Part shown: piece after piece, positions 1 through 64,000 of the stretch | Numbering within the stretch: the stretch's first letter is position 1 | Layout: each line of letters begins with the position of its first letter | NCBI GenBank assembly: GCA_964457375.1 | Contig: CAYWFK010000001.1 | Location: forward strand, 12,894-76,893 | DNA: 64,000 nt | Reading direction: 5' to 3' | From: an uncultured Anaerolineales bacterium | GTDB lineage: Bacteria > Chloroflexota > Anaerolineae > Anaerolineales > UBA11858 | Position numbers and translations under genes: made by a program | The notes under the pieces: generated by a model | What the model was told of the DNA's origin: nothing | Database searches by the model: none | The model's input: only the letters and a program-made list of their open reading frames with translations

Positions 1-840
1 AATCTACGCCTGCTTTGGCGCCGGCAGGGAAGAAGGAAGTGATGAAGTTACCCTGTTTGTGGAGCCAGCATTTGGGGGGCTGGTCGAACATGGGGGTAGG
101 GGCATCACCGAAGAAAGTGGTGACGATGGCCTGACGGCCGCCGTAGACGTACTTGTCGTCCCAGAGATTGGTGAGGATGGAGAGTGCGTTCTTGACTTCC
201 GGAGAAGAGAAGGGGAGTTCGCCGCGTGTCCACTTGTCGTAGTTTTCGAGGGAAGTGGTGCGGAGCATGATGTCTTCCATCCAGTCGGTGGCGGGCCAAC
301 CGGTGGCTGCGCCGGATTCGATACCGATACACCAGGGTTTGTCGCCGTCAGCGGCGATTTGTTCGGTGAGAGCAACGAGTTCGTCCCAGGTTTGCGGGAT
401 TTGGTAGCCGGCGGCATCGAAGTCATCCTTGGGATACCAGACCTGTGATTTGGCGTTGAAGCGCTGCCAGACACCGGCGACGATGGGGCCGGATGGGCTG
501 TCCATGGTAGCCATATCCCACCAGGACTGGTTGTAGTTATCGAAGGAAGACTTGGGGAGGAAGGTCGAGACATCGACGACTTTGCCTTTTTTGACAAAAG
601 TGCCGAGCAATCCGGGCTGGGGGAAGTCGACGATATCCGGAGCATCACCGCCTTCGACGCGGACGGAGATGGTCGCTTCGAATTCCTTGGTGCCTTCATA
701 CTGAATATCGATACCGGTAGCGTCTTCGAAAGCTTTGACGGAGTTAGCGAACTTGACGGCATCTTCATCGGTGAAGGGCCCGGTCATGCTGACAACGGTT
801 CCCTTGTATTCGCCGGCATAGGCTTTTTCGAGGAAGGTTT
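1..840. repeat. Direct repeat copy 1. It is 840/840 identical to 1273-2112 and may extend left of the window.
   Basis: I compared the two stretches line by line and every base of 1-840 equals 1273-2112. The period is 1272 bp, which is 424 codons, so the duplication is in frame. Confidence 0.95.
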
Positions 841-54286: not shown

Positions 54287-54889
54287 TTATACCGGAATAT
54301 GGAGATAGAAGCGGACGAGAAACAATGCGAGCGCGGCACCAAGCAGCCCTAATCCGCTGCCAGTCAAGGTGTCGGTAATGAAGTGAGCGCCCAGTACAAT
54401 TCTGCCGGCAGTAACAAGCAGTGCAATTGCGGCGGTAACGTATCCGGCGTATGGCGGAAGCGCAAACAGTATGGGAAAAACCATTGCCAGCAGCCAAATT
54501 CGCAATGCATCTCCGCTGGGGAACGACGTATCTTGCGGAATTTTCGGCTGGTGGATTTCAATCGCTGACGAGCAGCGAAACGGGCGTTTGCGTTTGAAAT
54601 CCTTTTTTAAGGAGCGTTCGATGATTGCGAAAAAAAGATAAGAACCACTGACAATCAAACCGCTAGGTAGATGATGCATCGTCAGCAGGATCAGGGCAAC
54701 GATGAGCACTCCGGAAGTACCCAGTACCCATAATTCACGAAAAAACGGCAGCACAAGGCGCTTTGCTGATAAACGCGGTTGAATGGTTTCGATCCAGCGA
54801 AGTTCCCGGTTGGCGACTGCGGGTATACGGAAGGTAAAACCGGCAGCTACCATCAGAAATCCGAAAATCGTCAGGGGTGTCAGGTTCAT
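54287..54889 (-). CDS. PAP2-family membrane phosphatase (variant motif 2)
   Basis: The motifs are KKDFKRKRP (K-x6-RP), FPSGDA (PSGD instead of PSGH) and GRIVLGAHFITD (R-x5-H-x3-D). The ATG at 54889 overlaps the upstream stop (ATGA). Confidence 0.7.
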   Translation of the reverse strand: MNLTPLTIFGFLMVAAGFTFRIPAVANRELRWIETIQPRLSAKRLVLPFFRELWVLGTSGVLIVALILLTMHHLPSGLIVSGSYLFFAIIERSLKKDFKRKRPFRCSSAIEIHQPKIPQDTSFPSGDALRIWLLAMVFPILFALPPYAGYVTAAIALLVTAGRIVLGAHFITDTLTGSGLGLLGAALALFLVRFYLHIPV

Positions 54890-55809
54890 GGCAGCTGGTC
54901 TAAAAATTGGGGCCAAACCGGATAGAACATGAGCCATTGTTCCGGAGCCATGAGAATGTATTTTTCGATAACCTTGAGAACGGCTTCTCCATTGATGCGG
55001 ATTGATTCAATCAGGTTGTCTTTGTGAATCATTTCGATGGGATCGGAAATGTAAATATCGTACTCCCCGGAGGGAAGCATTCTGGGAGCGACAACGGTAA
55101 TGGGAACGTTGGCTTCGAGTGCCATGCGGATATGCCCTGCCGGAAGAGGACTGGGGTAACCAAAAAAGTTCATCATATGGCGTTTGTTCTGCACCGGCCG
55201 GTCGACTCCGGTGATGACGAAGCCTTTGTTTTTCATCCGGTTCAATGCTCTGGTGTAAAAATCTGCTGAATTGATCGGGACAATTTCCAATCCGGTCAGT
55301 TCCCGAATCTGGTTTTGGATGTGATAGCCGCTTGTCGGTTGTTCGTAAGTGAGCACCATACCCTGCAAGCCGCGATAGCCATTGGCGAGAAACACGAGAT
55401 CGAAATTGCTCATGTGCGGGCCGGCAATGAATCCGCCGATTTTTCCGTTTTGGGTCAGCTCGATCCATTTTTTTGCGTTGGGTGTCAACGGGGCAAGCGA
55501 GAGCAGTTTTTCTTTATCTGAAAACACGTGAAAGAAATCGTACAAACAACGTGCCCCATGCGTAAGCACTTTTTTGACTTGAAGATCCAGCTCTTCGGCG
55601 TTGAGCTGCTTATCGTGTATGATCCATTGGTTCAGGCGAATGGATCGGTTGATTGGTGAATTCCTGCGTTTGAGAATCAAACCGATAATCAACTTGCTGA
55701 TGAAATAGCCCATGCGGGGAGGAAAGACTTTGCCGATTGTCATTCCTGTACGAACCCCAAAGCGGCTGTTGATAATCGTCTGAATATCCATCGACGTTTT
55801 ACTACTCAT
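54886..55809 (-). CDS. LpxL/HtrB/PatA-type (lysophospholipid/lipid A-like) acyltransferase
   Basis: HX4D motif in GPHMSNFD. The length and layout are typical of the Lip_A_acyltrans family. The ATG overlaps the stop of the upstream gene (ATGA at 55806-55809). Confidence 0.65.
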   Translation of the reverse strand: MSSKTSMDIQTIINSRFGVRTGMTIGKVFPPRMGYFISKLIIGLILKRRNSPINRSIRLNQWIIHDKQLNAEELDLQVKKVLTHGARCLYDFFHVFSDKEKLLSLAPLTPNAKKWIELTQNGKIGGFIAGPHMSNFDLVFLANGYRGLQGMVLTYEQPTSGYHIQNQIRELTGLEIVPINSADFYTRALNRMKNKGFVITGVDRPVQNKRHMMNFFGYPSPLPAGHIRMALEANVPITVVAPRMLPSGEYDIYISDPIEMIHKDNLIESIRINGEAVLKVIEKYILMAPEQWLMFYPVWPQFLDQLP

Positions 55810-56426
55810 CGCGAATCAGCATCTTTTGCGGCAACGGGCGGATTTTTGATGAGGCTGTATCCTTCGACGAGTACCGGCAACCCTCTGGCGATGGTCAGAC
55901 TAATGGCGAACCAGGAAAGAATCATAGCTGTGGTGTGAATTGCCGGCTGCCAGGTGCTGCCTTGTGTCATCAGGCTGAGATCGAGCGTGAGAAAAGAAAA
56001 CGCAAGCGCTTTGGCTACACCGTACCCGGAACGCATGATTTTCGAAGATACCAGAAAGCGGCTGATTGGGGAGTGCACCTGATCGAAAGCGGCAACGCCG
56101 TTGCGCATCCCCACGGCGCGGATTGCGTCGACTGTGGTTCCCCGTGTAATGGCGATGAGGGGAATGATGATAGGTATCAAGCCGATTTGTGCAAAGACGA
56201 CCCACAAAACGATTTCCAGCGTTCTGTCTGTGGCGATATCGAGAACGCTGCCCAGCAGGCTGACTTCACCTCTTGCCCGGGCAATGATGCCGTCGACAGT
56301 ATCCATGAGAATAATCAGGATGATGAACGGGACATCCCATAACTGGAGCGTGGGATTGTTCGTGTAGAGTAATCCTACGTAAACGAATAAGAGCGGAAAA
56401 CGTGCCAAAGTAATTAAATTTGCCAT
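55806..56426 (-). CDS. CDP-alcohol phosphatidyltransferase
   Basis: ORF trimmed to the ATG at 56426 (MANLITLARF). The complete signature is DTVDGIIARARGEVSLLGSVLDIATD (D-x2-DG-x2-AR-x8-G-x3-D-x3-D). Confidence 0.85.
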   Translation of the reverse strand: MANLITLARFPLLFVYVGLLYTNNPTLQLWDVPFIILIILMDTVDGIIARARGEVSLLGSVLDIATDRTLEIVLWVVFAQIGLIPIIIPLIAITRGTTVDAIRAVGMRNGVAAFDQVHSPISRFLVSSKIMRSGYGVAKALAFSFLTLDLSLMTQGSTWQPAIHTTAMILSWFAISLTIARGLPVLVEGYSLIKNPPVAAKDADSR

Positions 56427-56430
56427 ATAT

Positions 56431-57744
56431 CTATTGTATTTCTCCAAAACGTTGAAGTGCTTTGTAAATTGCGTTGGTGCCGAAATCAACAGCTTCTACG
56501 GGAATGCGTTCGTTTGCTGCGTGTACCAGCGAAGAAAATTTGAAGTCCGGAGCCAGCTGCATGGGGGTGAAACCATAGGTTTGTATCCCCAGCCGGGAGA
56601 AAAAGCGTGCGTCTGTTACAGCTGCCAGGAAGAAAGGCATCGGATGCCCGGATGGGTCTGCTTCTTTGAGAATCTTTGCAAGCACCGGGAAAAGTGACAT
56701 GTTTGGCGCGCTGGGTCCTTTGTCGGCAGCGACGATTTCGATTTTCAGGTCATCTCCCAAGAGCTGGTGAAGTTCGGTGATCATATCTTCTGCTGAAAAC
56801 CCGGGCAGCAGTCTGCCATCCAGTTGCACGGTTATTTCCGATGGGATGACGTTGACCTTGTCCCCGCCTTTGATGATGGTCGGATTGACCGTGTTATGCA
56901 TCAGAGGATAAAACAATTCGCTGTTCTTGCCAAGAGATTTCAATATCGTATCTGTCAGGGCGGGGTTGAGAATCGATTTGATGATCATGTTTTTGGGAAA
57001 AGGCAGCGCTTCAGCCATGCCTTCGAACATCAATCTGGCAGCACTGGTAACATGCACCGGCAGCCCTTTTTGATCGAGTGTGGTGAGTGCTTTTCCAAGT
57101 TTTGCCATCGCTCCGCTGTGGTGCACGAGGGAGCCATGCCCTGCCTGCCCGTGGAATGTCAGTTTCATCCAGCAAATCTGTTTTTCTGCAACCATAATCG
57201 GATAGAAACGTTTCCCGGCTGTTTCCATGGTGAACCCACCGAATTCCCCAAAGGCGAAACGGACATCCTTGAAAAGTTCCGGATGTTCTTCGACGAGAAA
57301 GGCTGCACCGGCGGAACTTCCTTCTTCTTCGTCTGCCAGCACGGTGAGAATAACATCCCCGGGAAGTTTGACATTGTTTTTCTTTGCCTTGATGAAGGCG
57401 GAAATCATCATGGCAACGGCGCCTTTCATATCCAGCGTTCCGCGCCCCCAAATGTAGCCATCGATGATCTCTCCGCCGAACGGAGGATGTTCCCACTGCT
57501 GGTTTTTGGTGGTAACTACATCGATGTGCCCTTGCAGTAACAAAGGCGGGGCGTTGCCTTCACCTTTCAACCGGGCGACAAGATTAGGACGATGCGGGAA
57601 CTTGGCGTACGTTTGGCTGGCAATACCGTATTGATCGAGTAGTGATTTGATCCAGGCGATTGCCGCTTCTTCGTTACCGGGCGGGTTGGTGGTATCGAAG
57701 CGTACCAGGGTTTGCAGGATGTCGATGGGTTTGAGAGCGTTCAT
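56431..57744 (-). CDS. M20-family metallohydrolase (peptidase/deacylase)
   Basis: GHIDVV, GRGTLDMKG, LADEEEGS and GHGS. The dimerisation-domain layout is typical of ArgE/DapE/CPG2 relatives. Confidence 0.75.
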   Translation of the reverse strand: MNALKPIDILQTLVRFDTTNPPGNEEAAIAWIKSLLDQYGIASQTYAKFPHRPNLVARLKGEGNAPPLLLQGHIDVVTTKNQQWEHPPFGGEIIDGYIWGRGTLDMKGAVAMMISAFIKAKKNNVKLPGDVILTVLADEEEGSSAGAAFLVEEHPELFKDVRFAFGEFGGFTMETAGKRFYPIMVAEKQICWMKLTFHGQAGHGSLVHHSGAMAKLGKALTTLDQKGLPVHVTSAARLMFEGMAEALPFPKNMIIKSILNPALTDTILKSLGKNSELFYPLMHNTVNPTIIKGGDKVNVIPSEITVQLDGRLLPGFSAEDMITELHQLLGDDLKIEIVAADKGPSAPNMSLFPVLAKILKEADPSGHPMPFFLAAVTDARFFSRLGIQTYGFTPMQLAPDFKFSSLVHAANERIPVEAVDFGTNAIYKALQRFGEIQ

Positions 57745-57758
57745 GCGTGCACCTTTTC

Positions 57759-59189
57759 TTAGTCGAAAGTATTCAGGATGACAAAATCTTTGTCCAGTTC
57801 GTCCGGGTCGGGTATCTTGTCGAATGGTTCCAGTACGGGGTGATTGGCTTCAAGGGAAAGCGGGCAGCCGCCGCCGCATTCGACAAGCAGGGAGCAGGAT
57901 TTGCAAACCTTGGGTACGTAATTCCGCTCTCGCAAATTGACCGCCAGTTCATGATTCCAGATCGATGTCCAGGGGTCTTTGAGGATATTCCCCAATTGGA
58001 CGTAATATGATTGGCAAGGAAGAACACCGCCATCCGGTTCGATGCACATATTGTAAAGGGCTGCGGTGCAACCTTTGACGCCTAATCCGTATTGTGTCGG
58101 ATCGAAATGGCAGTATTGTGTCGGGGTATACCAGATTAATCGCTGGTTGTATTTCGATGTTTTTTTGTGAGCCAGTTCAAGAAGGGAGGGGAGGACTTGA
58201 TCATCCAGCCCTGTACCGACTGTTTTCCCGTGCCCCGAATAAATCAGGGCATTCAAACCGACTGTGGGTATGCCCAATTCTCCGAGAAAATCCAGGGTTT
58301 CACCAAGTTTGCGGTAATTCGCCTGGAGCATTGTTGTGTTCGTCATGAGATAGAGTTTGCTCGCGAGGATGTTTTTCAAGCCTTGCAAGGTTTGTTTCCA
58401 GGCACCTTTTTTGTTTACCATAAAGTCGTGAATTTCCGGGTCGTGGGATTCAAAAGTGACTTGTACATGGTCCAGTCCGGCGTCGATCAGTTCCTGAAGA
58501 AATTTCTCATCGCTCAATCGTCTTCCATTGGTGTTCAATCCGGTGATTTGCCCGTTATTTTCTGCGTGGGCAATCAATGCCGGCAGGTCGTTTCGCAGGG
58601 TGGGTTCTCCGCCGGTGAAAACGATGTGGGGAATACCAAGTTCCCACGTTTTGTCGATGACCTGTTTCCATGCTTCTGTATCCAGTTCGGGGTAATTCCG
58701 GGCACGGGCGTTGTAGCAGTGGGCGCAGTCATTGTTGCAGCGGTAAGTAACTGCCAAATCCATACGGTAGGGGGCTGTCGGTCTGGCGCTAAAAGGGGCA
58801 TCGATTTCAAGATCGTCGAAGGTGCAGATTGCGCATTGAGCCGGGTCCAGCAAAGCATCGATGCGGGCAGTCAAATTGGCGAAGTCTTTCTTTGCAGTTT
58901 TTGGAGAAACCTGAAAAGCTTTTGTCAGTCTGGAGATGACGTTTTTTTGAGGATAACCTTGTAAATAGGCATAAGCCATCCAGGTGGCGGTAGGGTTGAG
59001 ATGAGTGACAGAATTGGCGTTGACAATCAGCGTTCCGAAACCGTCCGGGTCGACCCGCAGGTGAATACGGCTTTTCGATTGGGGTCCTTCGTTGCGGAAA
59101 TGGTGAATGCCGACGATTTGCCTGATAAGAGGCAAATCGTCGGTGGTTTCTACCGTGTGGTTTTTTTTGATCCCGAACAGATTCATCAT
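57759..59189 (-). CDS. Radical SAM/SPASM-domain enzyme with an N-terminal PqqD/RRE-like domain (RiPP-maturase architecture)
   Basis: The 4Fe-4S/SAM motif is CNNDCAHC, with FTGGEPTLR. The SPASM cysteines are GCTAALYNMCIEPDGGVLPC...GNI...CKSCSLLVECGGGCP. The first ~115 aa have a beta-beta-beta-alpha-alpha-alpha pattern (HLRVDPDGFGTLIVNANSVTHLNPTATWMAYAYLQG...VISRLTKAFQVSPKTAKKDFANLTARIDALL). Confidence 0.8.
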   Translation of the reverse strand: MMNLFGIKKNHTVETTDDLPLIRQIVGIHHFRNEGPQSKSRIHLRVDPDGFGTLIVNANSVTHLNPTATWMAYAYLQGYPQKNVISRLTKAFQVSPKTAKKDFANLTARIDALLDPAQCAICTFDDLEIDAPFSARPTAPYRMDLAVTYRCNNDCAHCYNARARNYPELDTEAWKQVIDKTWELGIPHIVFTGGEPTLRNDLPALIAHAENNGQITGLNTNGRRLSDEKFLQELIDAGLDHVQVTFESHDPEIHDFMVNKKGAWKQTLQGLKNILASKLYLMTNTTMLQANYRKLGETLDFLGELGIPTVGLNALIYSGHGKTVGTGLDDQVLPSLLELAHKKTSKYNQRLIWYTPTQYCHFDPTQYGLGVKGCTAALYNMCIEPDGGVLPCQSYYVQLGNILKDPWTSIWNHELAVNLRERNYVPKVCKSCSLLVECGGGCPLSLEANHPVLEPFDKIPDPDELDKDFVILNTFD

Positions 59190-59204
59190 TTTACTCCGGA
59201 AGGG

Positions 59205-60866
59205 TTAGCGGCCGCCGCCGGCACAGGCACAGGCACATCCGGCACAAGCGCAGGCGCAAGCGCAACCACCACCGCCGCCATGGTAACCGCCGGAAGAAGA
59301 CGATACCGGAGCCGGGTTGGTTTTTTCGGTAATGCCGCTGGTGAAGCTGGTAATATCACCGACCACATTGCTCGAAAAATTTTGAAGGCCGGTAACAACC
59401 GAAGCTGCAAAAGTACTTCCGGGCAGCGTAGGCATGGAGAAACTTCCGCCGCTTCCCGATGTCGATGGCTGGGAAGATGACGTTGCCGGGGATCCGTGCC
59501 AACCCGGATCATAACGGTTCCACCATACCGGTACGAAAACCGGTCCCTGACTGAAGACGTCTTTGGTTCGGTCTTCGAAATCCTTGTCGAGCATTGTCCA
59601 TCCCATATACTCGTCGTATTTTTTACTTTTCACTTCGGGGGTATCCGCCGCTTTGATTTGCTGCCATGCCTTATCCATAATTTTTTCGTAATAGGCAATG
59701 GTTTCCTTGCGGCTGAACCCTTTCATTTTCTTGCTGACGCTTTTGATTAAATCGATGATCAATGCCTGGAGTTTCTTTTTTCTCCTTGCCGGAGATTTTT
59801 CGTCGAAGGCTTCGAGAAAATCGATTTCGTATTTCCGCAGACCGGCAGGGCGCGGTTCGGTCGTTTTGATTTTTAGAGGCTCTTTTGCGATGACTTTTGC
59901 AGCATTCTTTTTGATTACGCTGAAAAGTATCATGGTCAGAATCTTGTCGACCGGATGTTCCATCAGAATGGCTGCTTCGACTGCTGTCAAACCGCGCTTG
60001 ATGCCATGCCCTTCGATACTGAGCTTGGGCGGCAGGTATTGTAATTTGCGTTTTTTGCTGGTCGTCTTACCTAACCAGGCGAAGAAAGCGAACATTGCCA
60101 GCACGGAACCCCAGCATGTGCAGCCGAAGATGGTATCTTTGCTTATCCCCAGCGTTTCGAAAAAGCCCGGGGTGACGATCGCAGTTTTGGGGACATAAGT
60201 TTTGGGGAAGGATGCCCCGAACTTGTAGGTTGAATGCCCGTTGGCTTGCGGATTGTGCCACGCGTAGACGACGCGTCCATGTTTGTCAAGATAGGTTTCC
60301 GGGGTTTGCGGAAAACCGTCAGGGGCTTTATGCCATTTGGGTTCTTCCGGTTTTACCCCCGGTGGCAGGTGAAAAACAACCGTCAGGTCTGTCGTTCCAT
60401 AGACATATTCGTCTCCGAACCAGGTGGGGGCAAAAACTGCGCTGGCGTATTCCTTGTTTTTGGAATCCGTGTAGAGAACATGCGTGATGCCTTTGATGTA
60501 GAGATGAACCTTTCCGGTATCTCCGGGCTGGATAGCATGACTCCCCAGTCCCAAAGCAACGCCGTTATCCACATAGGGGGAAGTATCGATGTCCGTTATC
60601 GTCAATCCGTCGACATCTGCTGAAACATTGGCAATGTCGAAATGTTCGTTTGGAAAACCGACATCGACATAATCGATGGGATCTGCACTGGTGCTGTTGG
60701 AGAAGATGAAAACGTAGTCGATGGAGAGCGTGCCATCTTTTTCCCAGTAGGCGTTTACGATTTCTTTGTCGAGGCTGAAATAGTATGTTTGGGATAATGC
60801 CGGTGAAGGAATGGCAAACAGGAATATCAGCAAAAGTAACCCGGCGATGATTTTCTTTTTGAACAT
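59205..60866 (-). CDS. DUF2207-like membrane protein ending in a Gly-flanked Cys-Ala repeat tail
   Basis: ATG at 60866 with GGAGA upstream. Signal peptide MFKKKIIAGLLLLIFLFAIPSPALSQ, then an extracytoplasmic beta-rich domain (YYFSLDKEIVNAYWEKDGTLSIDYVFIF), a TM segment, a Lys-rich region, and the C-terminus ...SSSGGYHGGGGGCACACACAGCACACAGGGR. Confidence 0.7.
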   Translation of the reverse strand: MFKKKIIAGLLLLIFLFAIPSPALSQTYYFSLDKEIVNAYWEKDGTLSIDYVFIFSNSTSADPIDYVDVGFPNEHFDIANVSADVDGLTITDIDTSPYVDNGVALGLGSHAIQPGDTGKVHLYIKGITHVLYTDSKNKEYASAVFAPTWFGDEYVYGTTDLTVVFHLPPGVKPEEPKWHKAPDGFPQTPETYLDKHGRVVYAWHNPQANGHSTYKFGASFPKTYVPKTAIVTPGFFETLGISKDTIFGCTCWGSVLAMFAFFAWLGKTTSKKRKLQYLPPKLSIEGHGIKRGLTAVEAAILMEHPVDKILTMILFSVIKKNAAKVIAKEPLKIKTTEPRPAGLRKYEIDFLEAFDEKSPARRKKKLQALIIDLIKSVSKKMKGFSRKETIAYYEKIMDKAWQQIKAADTPEVKSKKYDEYMGWTMLDKDFEDRTKDVFSQGPVFVPVWWNRYDPGWHGSPATSSSQPSTSGSGGSFSMPTLPGSTFAASVVTGLQNFSSNVVGDITSFTSGITEKTNPAPVSSSSGGYHGGGGGCACACACAGCACACAGGGR

Positions 60867-60944
60867 GGACATTCTCCAAATGAACAAACTTAACCGATAG
60901 AGTTTAATACACTATACGCAGTATCGAAAGATAAGTTGTAATGC

Positions 60945-61475: not shown

Positions 61476-62159
61476 TTACAAAGGGGCGTCGATAACGTTA
61501 TCCATCGACCCGATTTCGATCATTTTGCCTGTTGCAACGTAAATAGTGCGCTCGCAAATGTTCGTTACACGGTCAGCCGCCCGTTCCAAATTGTGGGCAA
61601 CCCAAAGGAGAAAATTGGCACGGTCGATTGTCGTAGGGTCTTGAATCATGAAGGTGAGCAATTCACGATACACCTGATTGTAAAGTGCGTCTACATCGTC
61701 ATCCCGTTTCGGTATCTGACGTGCTTTTTCGACATCGGTTCTGACGAAAGCCGCAATGGCGTCCTGAAGCATCTGTGCGGTAATTTCAGCCATCCGGGGG
61801 AGATCGATCAGGGGTTTGATGGGAGGTTCCGACCCCATCAGGATGGTGATGCGTGCAATCCCTTTGGCATAATCACCGATGCGTTCCAGTTCACCAACCA
61901 CTTCGAGAACCGAAGCCATGATCCTTGTATCTTTGGCTACCGGTCCCTGTGTGGCAATGACCATCATCGTCTTGTTTTCGATTTCGAAACGTTTTTCGTT
62001 GATGTTGGCGTCATTGTTGTAAATTTCCCGTGCCTTTGCAAAATCCCTTTTTTTCAGGGCTTCTATCGATGAAAGTATCGATTCTTCCACCATGCTGCCA
62101 AGGACGATGACATCATGGTACAGTTCTTTGATTTGACGATCCAGAATTTCTCGGGACAT
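61476..62159 (-). CDS. phoU: Phosphate-signalling regulator PhoU
   Basis: ORF trimmed to the ATG at 62159 with an AAGAGG RBS. It has two PhoU repeats (E..I...D and ELERIGDYAKGIA; NLERAADRVTNICE). Confidence 0.9.
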   Translation of the reverse strand: MSREILDRQIKELYHDVIVLGSMVEESILSSIEALKKRDFAKAREIYNNDANINEKRFEIENKTMMVIATQGPVAKDTRIMASVLEVVGELERIGDYAKGIARITILMGSEPPIKPLIDLPRMAEITAQMLQDAIAAFVRTDVEKARQIPKRDDDVDALYNQVYRELLTFMIQDPTTIDRANFLLWVAHNLERAADRVTNICERTIYVATGKMIEIGSMDNVIDAPL

Positions 62160-62511
62160 GATTGCCTCTTTCTTCCGGAAATCAAGGTGTCTATCCCTGG
62201 TCAATCCTTGATAGAAAACTTGTCCGGTCTAGATAGTTGGATTTTGTGTTTTTTCCCTGCAAGAGCCTCTTCGGTTCGAGATTGCCATGGTTTAAACCCG
62301 TTGCTGTCCGTTGAAAATCCTGACTGGCGCTTTTTCTTTCGCGTTGCGGGCAAGAAACAGGTCAGGTGTAGAATATCATTCAGGGCTGTGGTGGTACTAG
62401 TTGCCGATGTTCAACCCTTTTCTTTACGGAAGGACAATGTTGTTTTTGAACACATCAATTTGCAGCAATACCGGATGTGGTATTGTTTTCCATTGTATCT
62501 TATCCGAAGGA

Positions 62512-62561
62512 TGTTAACGAATGCAGAAAGATTTGTTAAATTTCCGTCAAAGCCTTGTTAA
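62512..62561 (-). repeat. Three TTAACA hexamers at exact 22-bp phasing (Pho-box-like direct repeats)
   Basis: TGTTAA occurs on the plus strand at 62512-17, 62534-39 and 62556-61. On the phoU strand these read TTAACA, which is the B. subtilis PhoP half-site consensus TT(A/T/C)ACA. Confidence 0.45.
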
Positions 62562-62591
62562 TTGAAAAAACAAAACAGTTTTATAAAGAGG

Positions 62592-62620
62592 ATTATATCA
62601 ATACCAATCTTTTCTATCAA
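62592..62620 (-). promoter_or_regulatory. Strong sigma70-type promoter pointing toward phoU
   Basis: On the minus strand: TTGATA (62620-62615), a 17-nt spacer, then TGa-TATAAT (62597-62592). Confidence 0.55.
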
Positions 62621-62680
62621 TGCTTGTAGTTTTCTGCGGAAGCGGAAAAGAGACGAAAAAGCAGGTGCACTTAGGCTTTT

Positions 62681-64000
62681 TTAACTTTCTTCAGAAAGTT
62701 TTGCGAGCGGAATGGTAAAAAGGAACGTGCTGCCTTCGCCTTCTGTGCTTTCTACCCAAATTACCCCGTTATGTGCCTCGATGATATGCCGGGAAATGGC
62801 CAGCCCCAAACCGGTACCGCCACCGGTTCTTGCCCGATCCGTTTTGTAAAAGCGCTCGAAGACTCTGGGCAAATCATCCGCGGGGATTCCAATGCCGGTA
62901 TCCTGAATGGAAAAGAGGATGGTTTGCCCTTTTTTGCGGGTGGAGATTGTGATTTTTCCGGGAGGGGGTGTGAACTTGATTGCGTTGTGAATCAGGTTGA
63001 CCAGCACTTGCTCCAGGCGGGGTTTGTCAGCCCGCACTTTCTCATTGCCATCATGGATGTCTACCTCGATTTCCAGCCCTACTCTTTGCGCCTGGACGAT
63101 GAGCCGCTCGACAGCGGAGGTGATTAATCCCTGTGGTGAAACAGGTGCAAATTGAAATGGTACCTGCCCGGATTCGATTCGTGTCAATTCCAGCAGTTCC
63201 GAAACCATGTGGCTCAATGCATCGACTTCGGTCACCATTCTGTCAAGGAAACGGCGGGCAGCCGGAGGGTCTTCAAGCGCACCGGCTTGCAGGGTTTCGG
63301 TGAGGGCTTTCAGCGATGCCAATGGGGTGCGTAATTCGTGAGAAATGTTGCTGACGAAATCCCGCCTGACTGTTTCCAGATGGCGGATGCGGGTGAGGTC
63401 CTGAAAGAGCAGCAGGATTTGCCCGTTCAGCGAATCGCCCAATGGAATGGCGATACTTTGGATGAATTTTTGCTGAAGGGTCAGCTCGATGGCACTGGAT
63501 TCTTTCGAACCGGAATCATGGCAGGTTTGCCAGAGATTGATTAATTCGTAGTGCCGAAGCACCTCGGCAACCGACGGCTGGCGCCAATTTTCGATTGTGA
63601 CACCAAACATGGATTCGGCTGCCCGGTTCATCAGGGTGACAATTCCCTGTTCATCGACAATCAATACCCCGTCGGTCATCTGCTGGAGAATTGCGGAGAG
63701 TTTTTCACGGTCGGTTTGCAATGCGGAGAGTTTGTTTTTCAGGTTTTCCGTAATGGTATTGATTGTTTCGGCAAGTGTGTGTTCGACCCCGTGGTATTCG
63801 TGAGCCGGTATTTTATCCCCGGATGTTGCTGTGTTCAGTTGCCGGGCTGCTTGGGCAAGTTTTCGGATTTGTTCCGATGTTTTGGACGAGATGCCGGAAA
63901 CGACGAATACGGCAAGTGCGGAAATCAGAAGACATGCGCCAAAAATGATTTGCCGGATGGTGTTAATCGATGAAATGATTTGGTCGTAAGGACGGGCAAG
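62681..64000 (-). CDS. phoR: PhoR-like sensor histidine kinase (TM-HAMP-PAS-HisKA-HATPase). The 5' end is off the window.
   Basis: The frame stays open to position 64000 (LARPYDQIISSINTIRQIIFGACLLISALAVFVV...), and the track's M at 63721 is an internal TTG. H-box FVSNISHELRTPL, plus N, G1 (DTGIGI) and G2 (GGTGLGL) boxes. Confidence 0.85.
   Translation of the reverse strand, partial: LARPYDQIISSINTIRQIIFGACLLISALAVFVVSGISSKTSEQIRKLAQAARQLNTATSGDKIPAHEYHGVEHTLAETINTITENLKNKLSALQTDREKLSAILQQMTDGVLIVDEQGIVTLMNRAAESMFGVTIENWRQPSVAEVLRHYELINLWQTCHDSGSKESSAIELTLQQKFIQSIAIPLGDSLNGQILLLFQDLTRIRHLETVRRDFVSNISHELRTPLASLKALTETLQAGALEDPPAARRFLDRMVTEVDALSHMVSELLELTRIESGQVPFQFAPVSPQGLITSAVERLIVQAQRVGLEIEVDIHDGNEKVRADKPRLEQVLVNLIHNAIKFTPPPGKITISTRKKGQTILFSIQDTGIGIPADDLPRVFERFYKTDRARTGGGTGLGLAISRHIIEAHNGVIWVESTEGEGSTFLFTIPLAKLSEES

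Follow-up and report, generated by a model that had tools for sequence, protein, structure and literature searches.

The window analysed here, a stretch of 64,000 nucleotides from an uncultured Anaerolineales bacterium (Chloroflexota; GenBank assembly GCA_964457375.1, contig CAYWFK010000001.1, positions 12,894 to 76,893), encodes a membrane protein that ends in an alternating Cys-Ala repeat, directly upstream of the gene for a radical S-adenosylmethionine (SAM) enzyme with a SPASM domain. Comparison across genomes places this Cys-Ala tail and the enzyme in a recurring four-gene cassette. We consider it probable that the cassette serves protein modification and that the tail is its uncleaved core, similar to the core of a peptide that is made by the ribosome and modified after translation (RiPP). 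The pairing of tail and enzyme extends from Chloroflexi to Asgard archaea, which suggests a protein modification system that is as yet undescribed. Literature searches on the motif, on DUF2207 together with radical SAM, on Cys-Ala repeats, and on SPASM or RiPP recognition element (RRE) proteins together with membrane-protein tails returned nothing relevant in the library searched. The enzyme class is known, while the type of substrate, its invariance, the absence of cleavage and the spread to Asgard archaea are new.

Conservation of the Cys-Ala tail

The C-terminus of the membrane protein reads ...GGGGG-CACACACA-G-CACACA-GGGR-stop. The residues that precede CACACACA can be written as SSSSGGYHGGGGG or TEKTNPAPVSSSSGGYHGGGGG. 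Seven Cys residues (535, 537, 539, 541, 544, 546 and 548) alternate with Ala; Gly543 breaks the run, five Gly residues stand before it and GGGR are the last residues of the protein. The reading frame thus agrees with the earlier note on this DNA, which had described seven Cys, one interrupting Gly, Gly flanks and a terminal Arg. That note had also placed the start of the radical SAM gene 15 nt past the stop codon with a GGAG of its own, and the 15-nt spacer between the stop and the ATG at 59189, CCCTTCCGGAGTAAA, does contain this motif. A scan of all frames of the window for (C-A/G/S)n runs of three or more found none besides the tail. The open reading frame (ORF) listing also offers an upstream TTG at 60887 as an alternative start, giving a protein of 560 aa.

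Among the candidates that a protein search scored, 4815 were homologues at E ≤ 1e-3, and an exhaustive HMMER search put the family at 868 representatives after clustering at 50% identity. The 120 closest homologues (55-100% identity) come from Anaerolineae and Chloroflexi metagenome-assembled genomes (MAGs); 118 of them terminate in CACACAGCACACAGGGR and the remaining two are truncated. Full-length relatives down to about 30% identity all bear such a tail, the tail-less entries being fragments. The variants include CACACAGCACACACAGGGR, CACACACACAGGGR and CACACAGGGR, and longer forms occur in archaea, for example ...CVCACHACACACACVSCACACAGGGAR. A 103-sequence alignment, with identities as low as about 30%, has its invariant columns at a single ectodomain Gly and at the final CACACA-G (G551).

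We also scanned one genome per GTDB species with a DNA pattern. This yielded at least 120 loci (L numbers below denote genome and metagenome loci); the total counts and the second loci per genome are lower bounds. Among the matches listed, all 122 tails sit at the exact C-terminus of the protein, and 122 distinct DNA sequences encode one identical 17-residue peptide. TGC and TGT are used about equally for Cys, and all four Ala codons, all four Gly codons, six Arg codons and three stop codons are in use. The final Gly, the Arg and the stop lay outside the search pattern and are nevertheless found in 122 of 122 listed tails. Since synonymous codons are free while the peptide is fixed, selection acts on the peptide. 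The scrambled synonymous sites rule out a repeat maintained at the DNA level or an assembly artefact; the earlier note had allowed for the latter, and the retention of the tail in 118 of 120 homologues and the 122 listed DNA versions speak against it, and against chance, as well. The Cys-Ala tail was met in one protein family only.

The core is joined to the rest of the protein by a flexible linker of 10-24 aa (mode 15; 43% Gly and 30% Ser in the 116 tails compared). An xNPxx motif is found in 110 of these 116 tails, 10-24 residues ahead of the first Cys, and forms part of a longer pre-core motif, F-T-x-x-(V/I)-T-x-x-T-N-P-x-P.

Carriers of the homologous tail protein are mainly Anaerolineae. 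Outside this class we found it in Acidobacteriota and Aminicenantes (L010, L045, L063, L089, L107), Sabulitectum/Hyd24-12 (L014, L020, L083, L088), Planctomycetota (L024, L061), Zixibacteria (L062), Coatesbacteria (L066, L108), Edwardsbacteria (L110), a Clostridia MAG (L074) and a deltaproteobacterial MAG (L123). The Asgard carriers belong to Hodarchaeota (L049), Heimdallarchaeota (L051) and Promethearchaeota (L069, L086, L087). Two carriers are cultured, Ornatilinea apprima P3M-1 (L047) and Leptolinea sp. HRD-7 (L106). Some Anaerolineae have tandem tail-bearing paralogs before the radical SAM gene (L001, 8252..12331; L077; L090), with the same tail on both copies; either one copy has about 555 aa and the other, with its larger ectodomain, about 775 aa, or both have about 570 aa. 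At L202 (about 1..190), two copies of ...CAGCACACAGGGR-stop lie 76 nt apart upstream of the radical SAM gene, and at L038, L042 and L064 the tail is in a short ORF with the remainder of the gene in another frame. At these four loci, either frameshift errors in long-read MAGs or pseudogenes are the probable explanation.

The radical SAM enzyme and its linkage to the tail

To measure the linkage, we compared the window proteins with oriented genome loci by tblastn. Among the matches listed, a radical SAM-type gene starts within 700 nt downstream of the tail gene, on the same strand, at 108 of 117 testable tails; at about seven of these 108, solely an Fe-S-less paralog of the enzyme (see below) directly follows the tail gene. 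The linked loci include those of Asgard archaea (L049, L051, L069, L086), Zixibacteria (L062), Coatesbacteria (L066), Planctomycetota (L061), Aminicenantes (L045) and Sabulitectum (L014, L020). L077b and L090b, two of the nine exceptions, each stand upstream of a second tail gene in tandem. In the reverse direction, the tail gene was found upstream in 73 of the best 80 metagenome loci anchored on the radical SAM gene: 63 within 700 nt and 10 more at 0.6-1.7 kb, while the other seven have too little upstream sequence. The earlier note had proposed to ask whether such tails occur only beside a radical SAM gene. They were met in one family, with a radical SAM-type neighbor at 108 of the 117 testable loci listed, and a wide spread of CACACA tails lacking such a neighbor was not seen.

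Loci with variant tails show the same association. L204, an archaeal locus with Alba and TBP genes nearby, has the order zinc-ribbon protein, tail protein, radical SAM/SPASM enzyme, and L209 has the order tail protein, radical SAM enzyme, methyltransferase. At L208 the order is permuted to radical SAM enzyme, pseudo-radical SAM protein, tail protein, which shows that the association is more than inherited gene order. In the window, the tail gene and the radical SAM gene share a reading frame, with the TAA and five codons between them (59187..59207, minus strand). A programmed read-through fusing the two proteins was considered and rejected as an improbable part of the system, because the in-frame spacing is not kept at other loci.

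The enzyme matches the Pfam models Radical_SAM (5.9e-28) and SPASM (1.8e-10). Its CX3CX2C motif, of the kind that binds the SAM-cleaving [4Fe-4S] cluster, is invariant in 20 orthologs from several phyla, and both Cys motifs are present in 69 of 69 orthologs. The SPASM ligands C360, C374, C382 and C392 and the CX2CX5CX3C motif, corresponding to two auxiliary clusters, are likewise invariant across phyla. Orthologs from many phyla (40-62% identity to the enzyme of the window) share the N-terminal segment HLRV..DG.G.L.INA.R..HLN.TA, the CX3CXHCY motif and the seven SPASM Cys. Many of them carry a precomputed match to PF05402 (PqqD) and the name 'PqqD family peptide modification chaperone' is attached to some; the PqqD model gave no match to the window enzyme itself at E ≤ 0.01. 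In its AlphaFold2 (AF2) model (predicted local distance difference test score (pLDDT) 75, predicted template modeling score (pTM) 0.78), residues 27-114 form four strands and three helices. The best structural matches are SkfB and SuiB (443-454 aligned columns, most of the length), PqqE and anSME, and the closest solved relatives by sequence are PqqE, SkfB, CteB and SuiB. No NCBIfam equivalog reaches its cutoff for the enzyme: PqqE is best with 139.7 bits against a cutoff of 381, followed among others by MftC (90.3 against 265), StsB (77 against 625) and SkfB (74 against 300), and the SCIFF maturase is outside the best 25 matches. The RRE-like domain, the Fe-S ligands and the structural neighbors therefore mark it as a radical SAM enzyme of the peptide-maturase type with its own recognition domain. 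From sequence and model, we assign it to the class of RRE-dependent radical SAM/SPASM peptide maturases.

Anaerolineae add a second, Fe-S-less paralog to the cassette. In 53 of 53 orthologs it is without the CX3CX2C motif and the SPASM Cys and keeps a PqqD/RRE-like N-terminus. It is a conserved example of a pseudo-radical SAM protein that retains the peptide-recognition domain, and may be a non-catalytic, substrate-binding partner.

The membrane protein and the cassette

The tail protein is predicted to consist of a signal peptide (residues 1-26), a beta-sandwich ectodomain (about 30-221), a transmembrane (TM) segment (243-275), a cytoplasmic winged-helix and helical domain (276-520) and the tail (521-553). 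Its AF2 model, computed with the family alignment, has a mean pLDDT of 89.6 and contains a signal helix (3-18), a winged-helix-like unit (295-335), a helical domain extending to residue 516 and a disordered end, where from residue 524 onwards the pLDDT is under 50. No segment besides the signal peptide and the TM segment passes the hydropathy threshold; Lys and Arg number zero in the 15 positions ahead of the TM segment and six just past it. This charge distribution and the single TM segment put the tail, together with the C-terminal half of the protein, on the cytoplasmic side. Thus, the protein is predicted to be a type I membrane protein with its C-terminal half and disordered tail facing the cytoplasm, and the cytoplasmic tail anticipated by the earlier note is supported by both the predicted structure and the way the charges are distributed.

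In structure, the predicted ectodomain is similar to ribophorin I/OST1 (Foldseek E 1.8e-8) and also to the M1 aminopeptidase N-domain. The likeness to ribophorin I/OST1 is of possible interest as the family is also present in Asgard archaea. No Pfam or NCBIfam model matched the tail protein at E ≤ 0.01. The label "DUF2207-like" that the earlier note gave it consequently lacks backing from hidden Markov models (HMMs), and what remains is trace similarity and a resemblance in architecture. A search for DUF2207 (Pfam PF09972 and PF20990) at E ≤ 10 gave DUF2207_C with E=0.43 in one distant homolog only, and hhalign against E. coli YciQ gave a probability of 5.6%, at the equivalent segment after the TM helix. 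The two proteins may have an overall plan in common, in which a signal peptide and a beta-rich ectodomain lead to a TM helix, then to basic residues and a segment resembling a winged helix, and the C-terminal tail is rich in Gly. However, YciQ terminates in ...GGGAGGGAGGGGGGGW, which is Gly-rich and free of Cys, and its sequence appears to have extra hydrophobic stretches in the C-terminal half. In E. coli K-12, yciQ is flanked by yciO and rluB, neither of which is a radical SAM gene, whereas the tail gene adjoins one.

The recurring cassette comprises a zinc-ribbon membrane protein, the tail protein, the RRE-radical SAM-SPASM enzyme and a class I methyltransferase (Table 1). At 27 non-Chloroflexi loci, four real gene families recur and these are exactly the members of the cassette; no protease, transporter or exporter recurs with them. 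No separate precursor-peptide gene is conserved in the cassette either, and there is no room for one. The zinc-ribbon protein was recognized from weak zinc-ribbon HMM matches and two hydrophobic segments. Its gene lies upstream of the tail gene in most loci, including 12 non-Chloroflexi loci and the archaeal L204 (5660..6007), and the protein has a conserved end, (L/E)-x-E-(D/E/Q)-P-(K/T)-W. At most loci of Anaerolineae, the methyltransferase gene comes after the radical SAM genes; at loci of Asgard archaea, Zixibacteria, Coatesbacteria and Planctomycetota, which have one radical SAM gene, it is the very next gene. Its closest solved relatives are generic class I enzymes, among them the RiPP methyltransferases LahSB and BamL (E about 1e-7).

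In the window, the two radical SAM paralogs are separated by a block that encodes an M20 peptidase and three lipid-related proteins. The lipid genes also occur at L001-L003, and none of the four proteins has a tblastn match in at least 120 other GTDB loci. The block is a lineage-specific insertion outside the conserved cassette. A PhoU gene and a histidine kinase gene lie just upstream of the cassette in the window. At L001-L003 this position is taken by pstSCAB-phoU, and the neighborhood is conserved within Anaerolineae only.

Table 1 Features around the Cys-Ala tail gene, in window positions
Feature	Position	Strand	Remarks
PhoU; PAS-HisKA-HATPase histidine kinase	61476..63721	minus	just upstream of the cassette
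Small membrane protein, 127 aa	60945..61328	minus	two TM helices and C-terminal C4 zinc ribbon; first cassette gene
Tail-protein gene	59205..60866	minus	553 aa from ATG at 60866; stop TAA 59205..59207
Ectodomain of tail protein	60141..60788	minus	aa 27-242
Pre-core motif F-T-x-x-(V/I)-T-x-x-T-N-P-x-P	59307..59345	minus	aa 508-520; candidate recognition ("leader-like") segment for RRE
Gly/Ser-rich flexible linker VSSSSGGYHGGGGG	59265..59306	minus	aa 521-534; pLDDT <50 from residue 524
Core (Cys-Ala)4-Gly-(Cys-Ala)3-Gly3-Arg	59208..59264	minus	aa 535-553, extreme C-terminus
RRE(PqqD-like)-radical SAM-SPASM enzyme, 476 aa	57759..59189	minus	RRE about aa 27-114; CX3CX2C C151/C155/C158; seven-Cys SPASM region aa 360-442
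M20 peptidase, CDP-alcohol phosphatidyltransferase, LpxL/PIM-acyltransferase-like, PAP2 phosphatase	54287..57744	minus	between the radical SAM paralogs; Pfam/NCBIfam matches
Pseudo-radical SAM paralog, 393 aa	53092..54273	minus	partial Radical_SAM match, weak PqqD match
Class I SAM-dependent methyltransferase, 251 aa	52330..53085	minus	Methyltransf_11 1.1e-20; last cassette gene

Possible roles of the tail

The earlier note had interpreted the tail as a substrate of the radical SAM enzyme. This interpretation gains support from the genomic linkage, the RRE, the CX3CX2C motif, the complete SPASM motif and the maturase-like structural neighbors, and judging from these sequence features the tail is probably the substrate. 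We further characterized the cassette by comparison with known systems. Sacti- and ranthipeptide systems (SkfB, AlbA, CteB, PapB and the SCIFF maturases) also place an RRE-radical SAM-SPASM enzyme beside a Cys-rich substrate, and the closest solved structures and sequences of the window enzyme fall in this group. However, their substrates are short leader-core precursors that are cleaved and exported, whereas the Cys-Ala core terminates a membrane protein of 553 aa. Their cores are variable, while the Cys-Ala core is invariant across phyla and comes without a protease or exporter, and here Ala or Gly would need to serve as acceptors. In QhpD/QhpC and in anSME with its sulfatases, a radical SAM-SPASM enzyme modifies Cys residues of a protein and the modification is kept in the mature form, as proposed for the tail. 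QhpC differs in being a small soluble subunit that undergoes export later on, with Asp or Glu as the partners in its cross-links; the product of anSME is formylglycine, formed within a C-x-(P/A)-x-R motif that is absent from the tail. Neither type of substrate has a C-terminal repeat. PqqE/PqqA and MftC/MftA resemble the cassette in the best HMM similarity to the radical SAM enzyme, in the PqqD-type RRE and in an invariant core at or near the C-terminus. The PqqA and MftA cores differ in having no Cys repeat and in being excised as a free cofactor, and the window enzyme scores far below the PqqE and MftC cutoffs.

Several observations weigh against the tail being an uncleaved core of the neighboring maturase. 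The TNPxP motif is missing in some lineages that bear the radical SAM enzyme (the pre-core motif is absent from the variant lineages L024, L069, L086 and L208), so the proposed recognition segment is not universal. The tail is perfect at seven loci without an adjacent radical SAM gene (L005, L008, L024, L027, L041, L108, L110), although the MAG of L024 holds a full cassette elsewhere (L061). At seven Anaerolineae loci the adjacent gene is the Fe-S-less paralog. The reverse test covered close orthologs of the radical SAM enzyme (59-67% identity). Finally, known sacti- and ranthipeptide cores are variable, cleaved and exported, and the Cys-Ala core is neither variable nor accompanied by genes for the other two steps.

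The perfect tails at loci without an adjacent radical SAM gene would also fit a tail that is not covalently modified at all and that binds a metal or an Fe-S cluster, with C-x-C spacing similar to metallothioneins. The radical SAM enzyme and the methyltransferase would then act elsewhere, or use the tail as a cluster donor, sulfur donor or redox partner in one membrane complex. Seven thiols on a flexible cytoplasmic tail and the zinc-ribbon protein among the cassette members are consistent with this, and the alternation would put all thiols on one face if the tail formed a beta-strand. Yet metal-binding tails usually drift in length and spacing, whereas in this tail the invariance of Cys extends equally to Ala, Gly and the terminal Arg. 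Binding alone also leaves unexplained the RRE, which is typical of maturases that act on peptide substrates, and the conserved cassette has no second gene that could encode a substrate. We regard this explanation as rather improbable. The tail might also be the core of a true RiPP precursor, cut off after modification and released as a small molecule or cofactor in the manner of pyrroloquinoline quinone (PQQ) or mycofactocin; its invariance would suit a peptide-derived cofactor. PqqE as the best NCBIfam match of the enzyme (140 bits), with MftC also listed, agrees with such a product, and the M20 peptidase encoded after the radical SAM gene in the window could release it. However, the M20 gene is unmatched in at least 120 GTDB loci, no protease or exporter recurs in the cassette, and it would be wasteful for a cofactor precursor to end a 553-aa membrane protein with a conserved ectodomain. 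A released cofactor is thus an unlikely outcome, and somewhat less likely than metal binding.

The operon in the window offers a further explanation, in that the tail might be a signal for lipidation or membrane association, being S-acylated, S-alkylated or a short hydrophobic anchor, with the nearby enzymes supplying the lipid. Genes for a CDP-alcohol phosphatidyltransferase, an acyltransferase and a PAP2 phosphatase are present in the same operon, and the last 19 residues have a mean hydropathy of 1.48, just below the TM threshold of 1.6. But the lipid genes are confined to the lineage of the window and L001-L003, being absent from at least 120 other loci and from all non-Chloroflexi cassettes, and no acyltransferase is conserved with the tail. 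The AF2 model of the tail is mostly coil without a TM helix (pLDDT below 50 from residue 524), and residue-by-residue invariance is unlike a membrane anchor. Lipid attachment via the lipid genes of the operon was rejected since these genes are a lineage-specific insertion, and a C-terminal TM anchor was rejected on the hydropathy of 1.48, the low-confidence coil and the full invariance. We therefore hold a lipidation signal of any kind to be very improbable. The earlier note had called metal binding and S-acylation equally possible roles; both have now become less likely, the lipid genes being outside the conserved cassette.

If the tail is an uncleaved core, the RRE of the radical SAM enzyme or that of the pseudo-radical SAM protein would dock on the FTxx(V/I)TxxTNPxP segment, or on the core itself, and the flexible linker would feed the C-terminal core into the active site. 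There, the 5'-deoxyadenosyl radical would take a hydrogen from C-alpha or C-beta of a neighboring Ala or Gly, and Cys thiolates held at an auxiliary cluster would react to give several thioether bonds, either sactionine or ranthionine in type. The methyltransferase could then cap a leftover thiol or the free C-terminal carboxylate. The product would stay on the membrane protein, either as a rigid cross-linked knot or as a tethered metal or redox site. Precedent comes from PapB, which makes six thioethers on repeated motifs and can couple Cys to the C-terminal residue of its peptide (PMC12373016). By analogy, thioether formation is a possible chemistry for the enzyme, though we put it forward tentatively.

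The invariance of the core further narrows what the product could be. As PqqA and MftA illustrate, invariant cores are typical of peptide-derived cofactors. Since the Cys-Ala core resembles these and not antibiotics in its invariance, one defined product kept on the protein is to be expected. In its most specific form, the proposal is that the radical SAM enzyme and the methyltransferase turn CACACA-GGGR into a protein-tethered prosthetic group: a single poly-thioether or sulfur structure that acts as a fixed cofactor or as a metal or redox site on the cytoplasmic face of a conserved, receptor-like membrane protein. The system would then be ancient enough for Chloroflexota, several further anaerobic phyla of bacteria and Asgard archaea to have it in common. 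We consider this form speculative, and somewhat less likely than thioether chemistry as such.

RiPP-type radical SAM enzymes are known for decorating short, variable peptides that are exported. Here, machinery of this type is tied to an invariant repeat that ends a large membrane protein, with no genes for cleavage or export alongside; this pairing is found across numerous uncultured anaerobic lineages as well as Asgard archaea, and the unchanging core suggests a single defined product and not an antibiotic. If the tail does become a prosthetic group, it would represent a new class of radical SAM-made protein modification, with a chemistry, ladders of Cys linked to Ala or Gly, that is not known to have been described. 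The enzyme and substrate form a short, clear and testable pair, and cultured carriers exist. The cassette opens a way into a family that comprises thousands of 'hypothetical' proteins, and it may be a source of new Cys chemistry.

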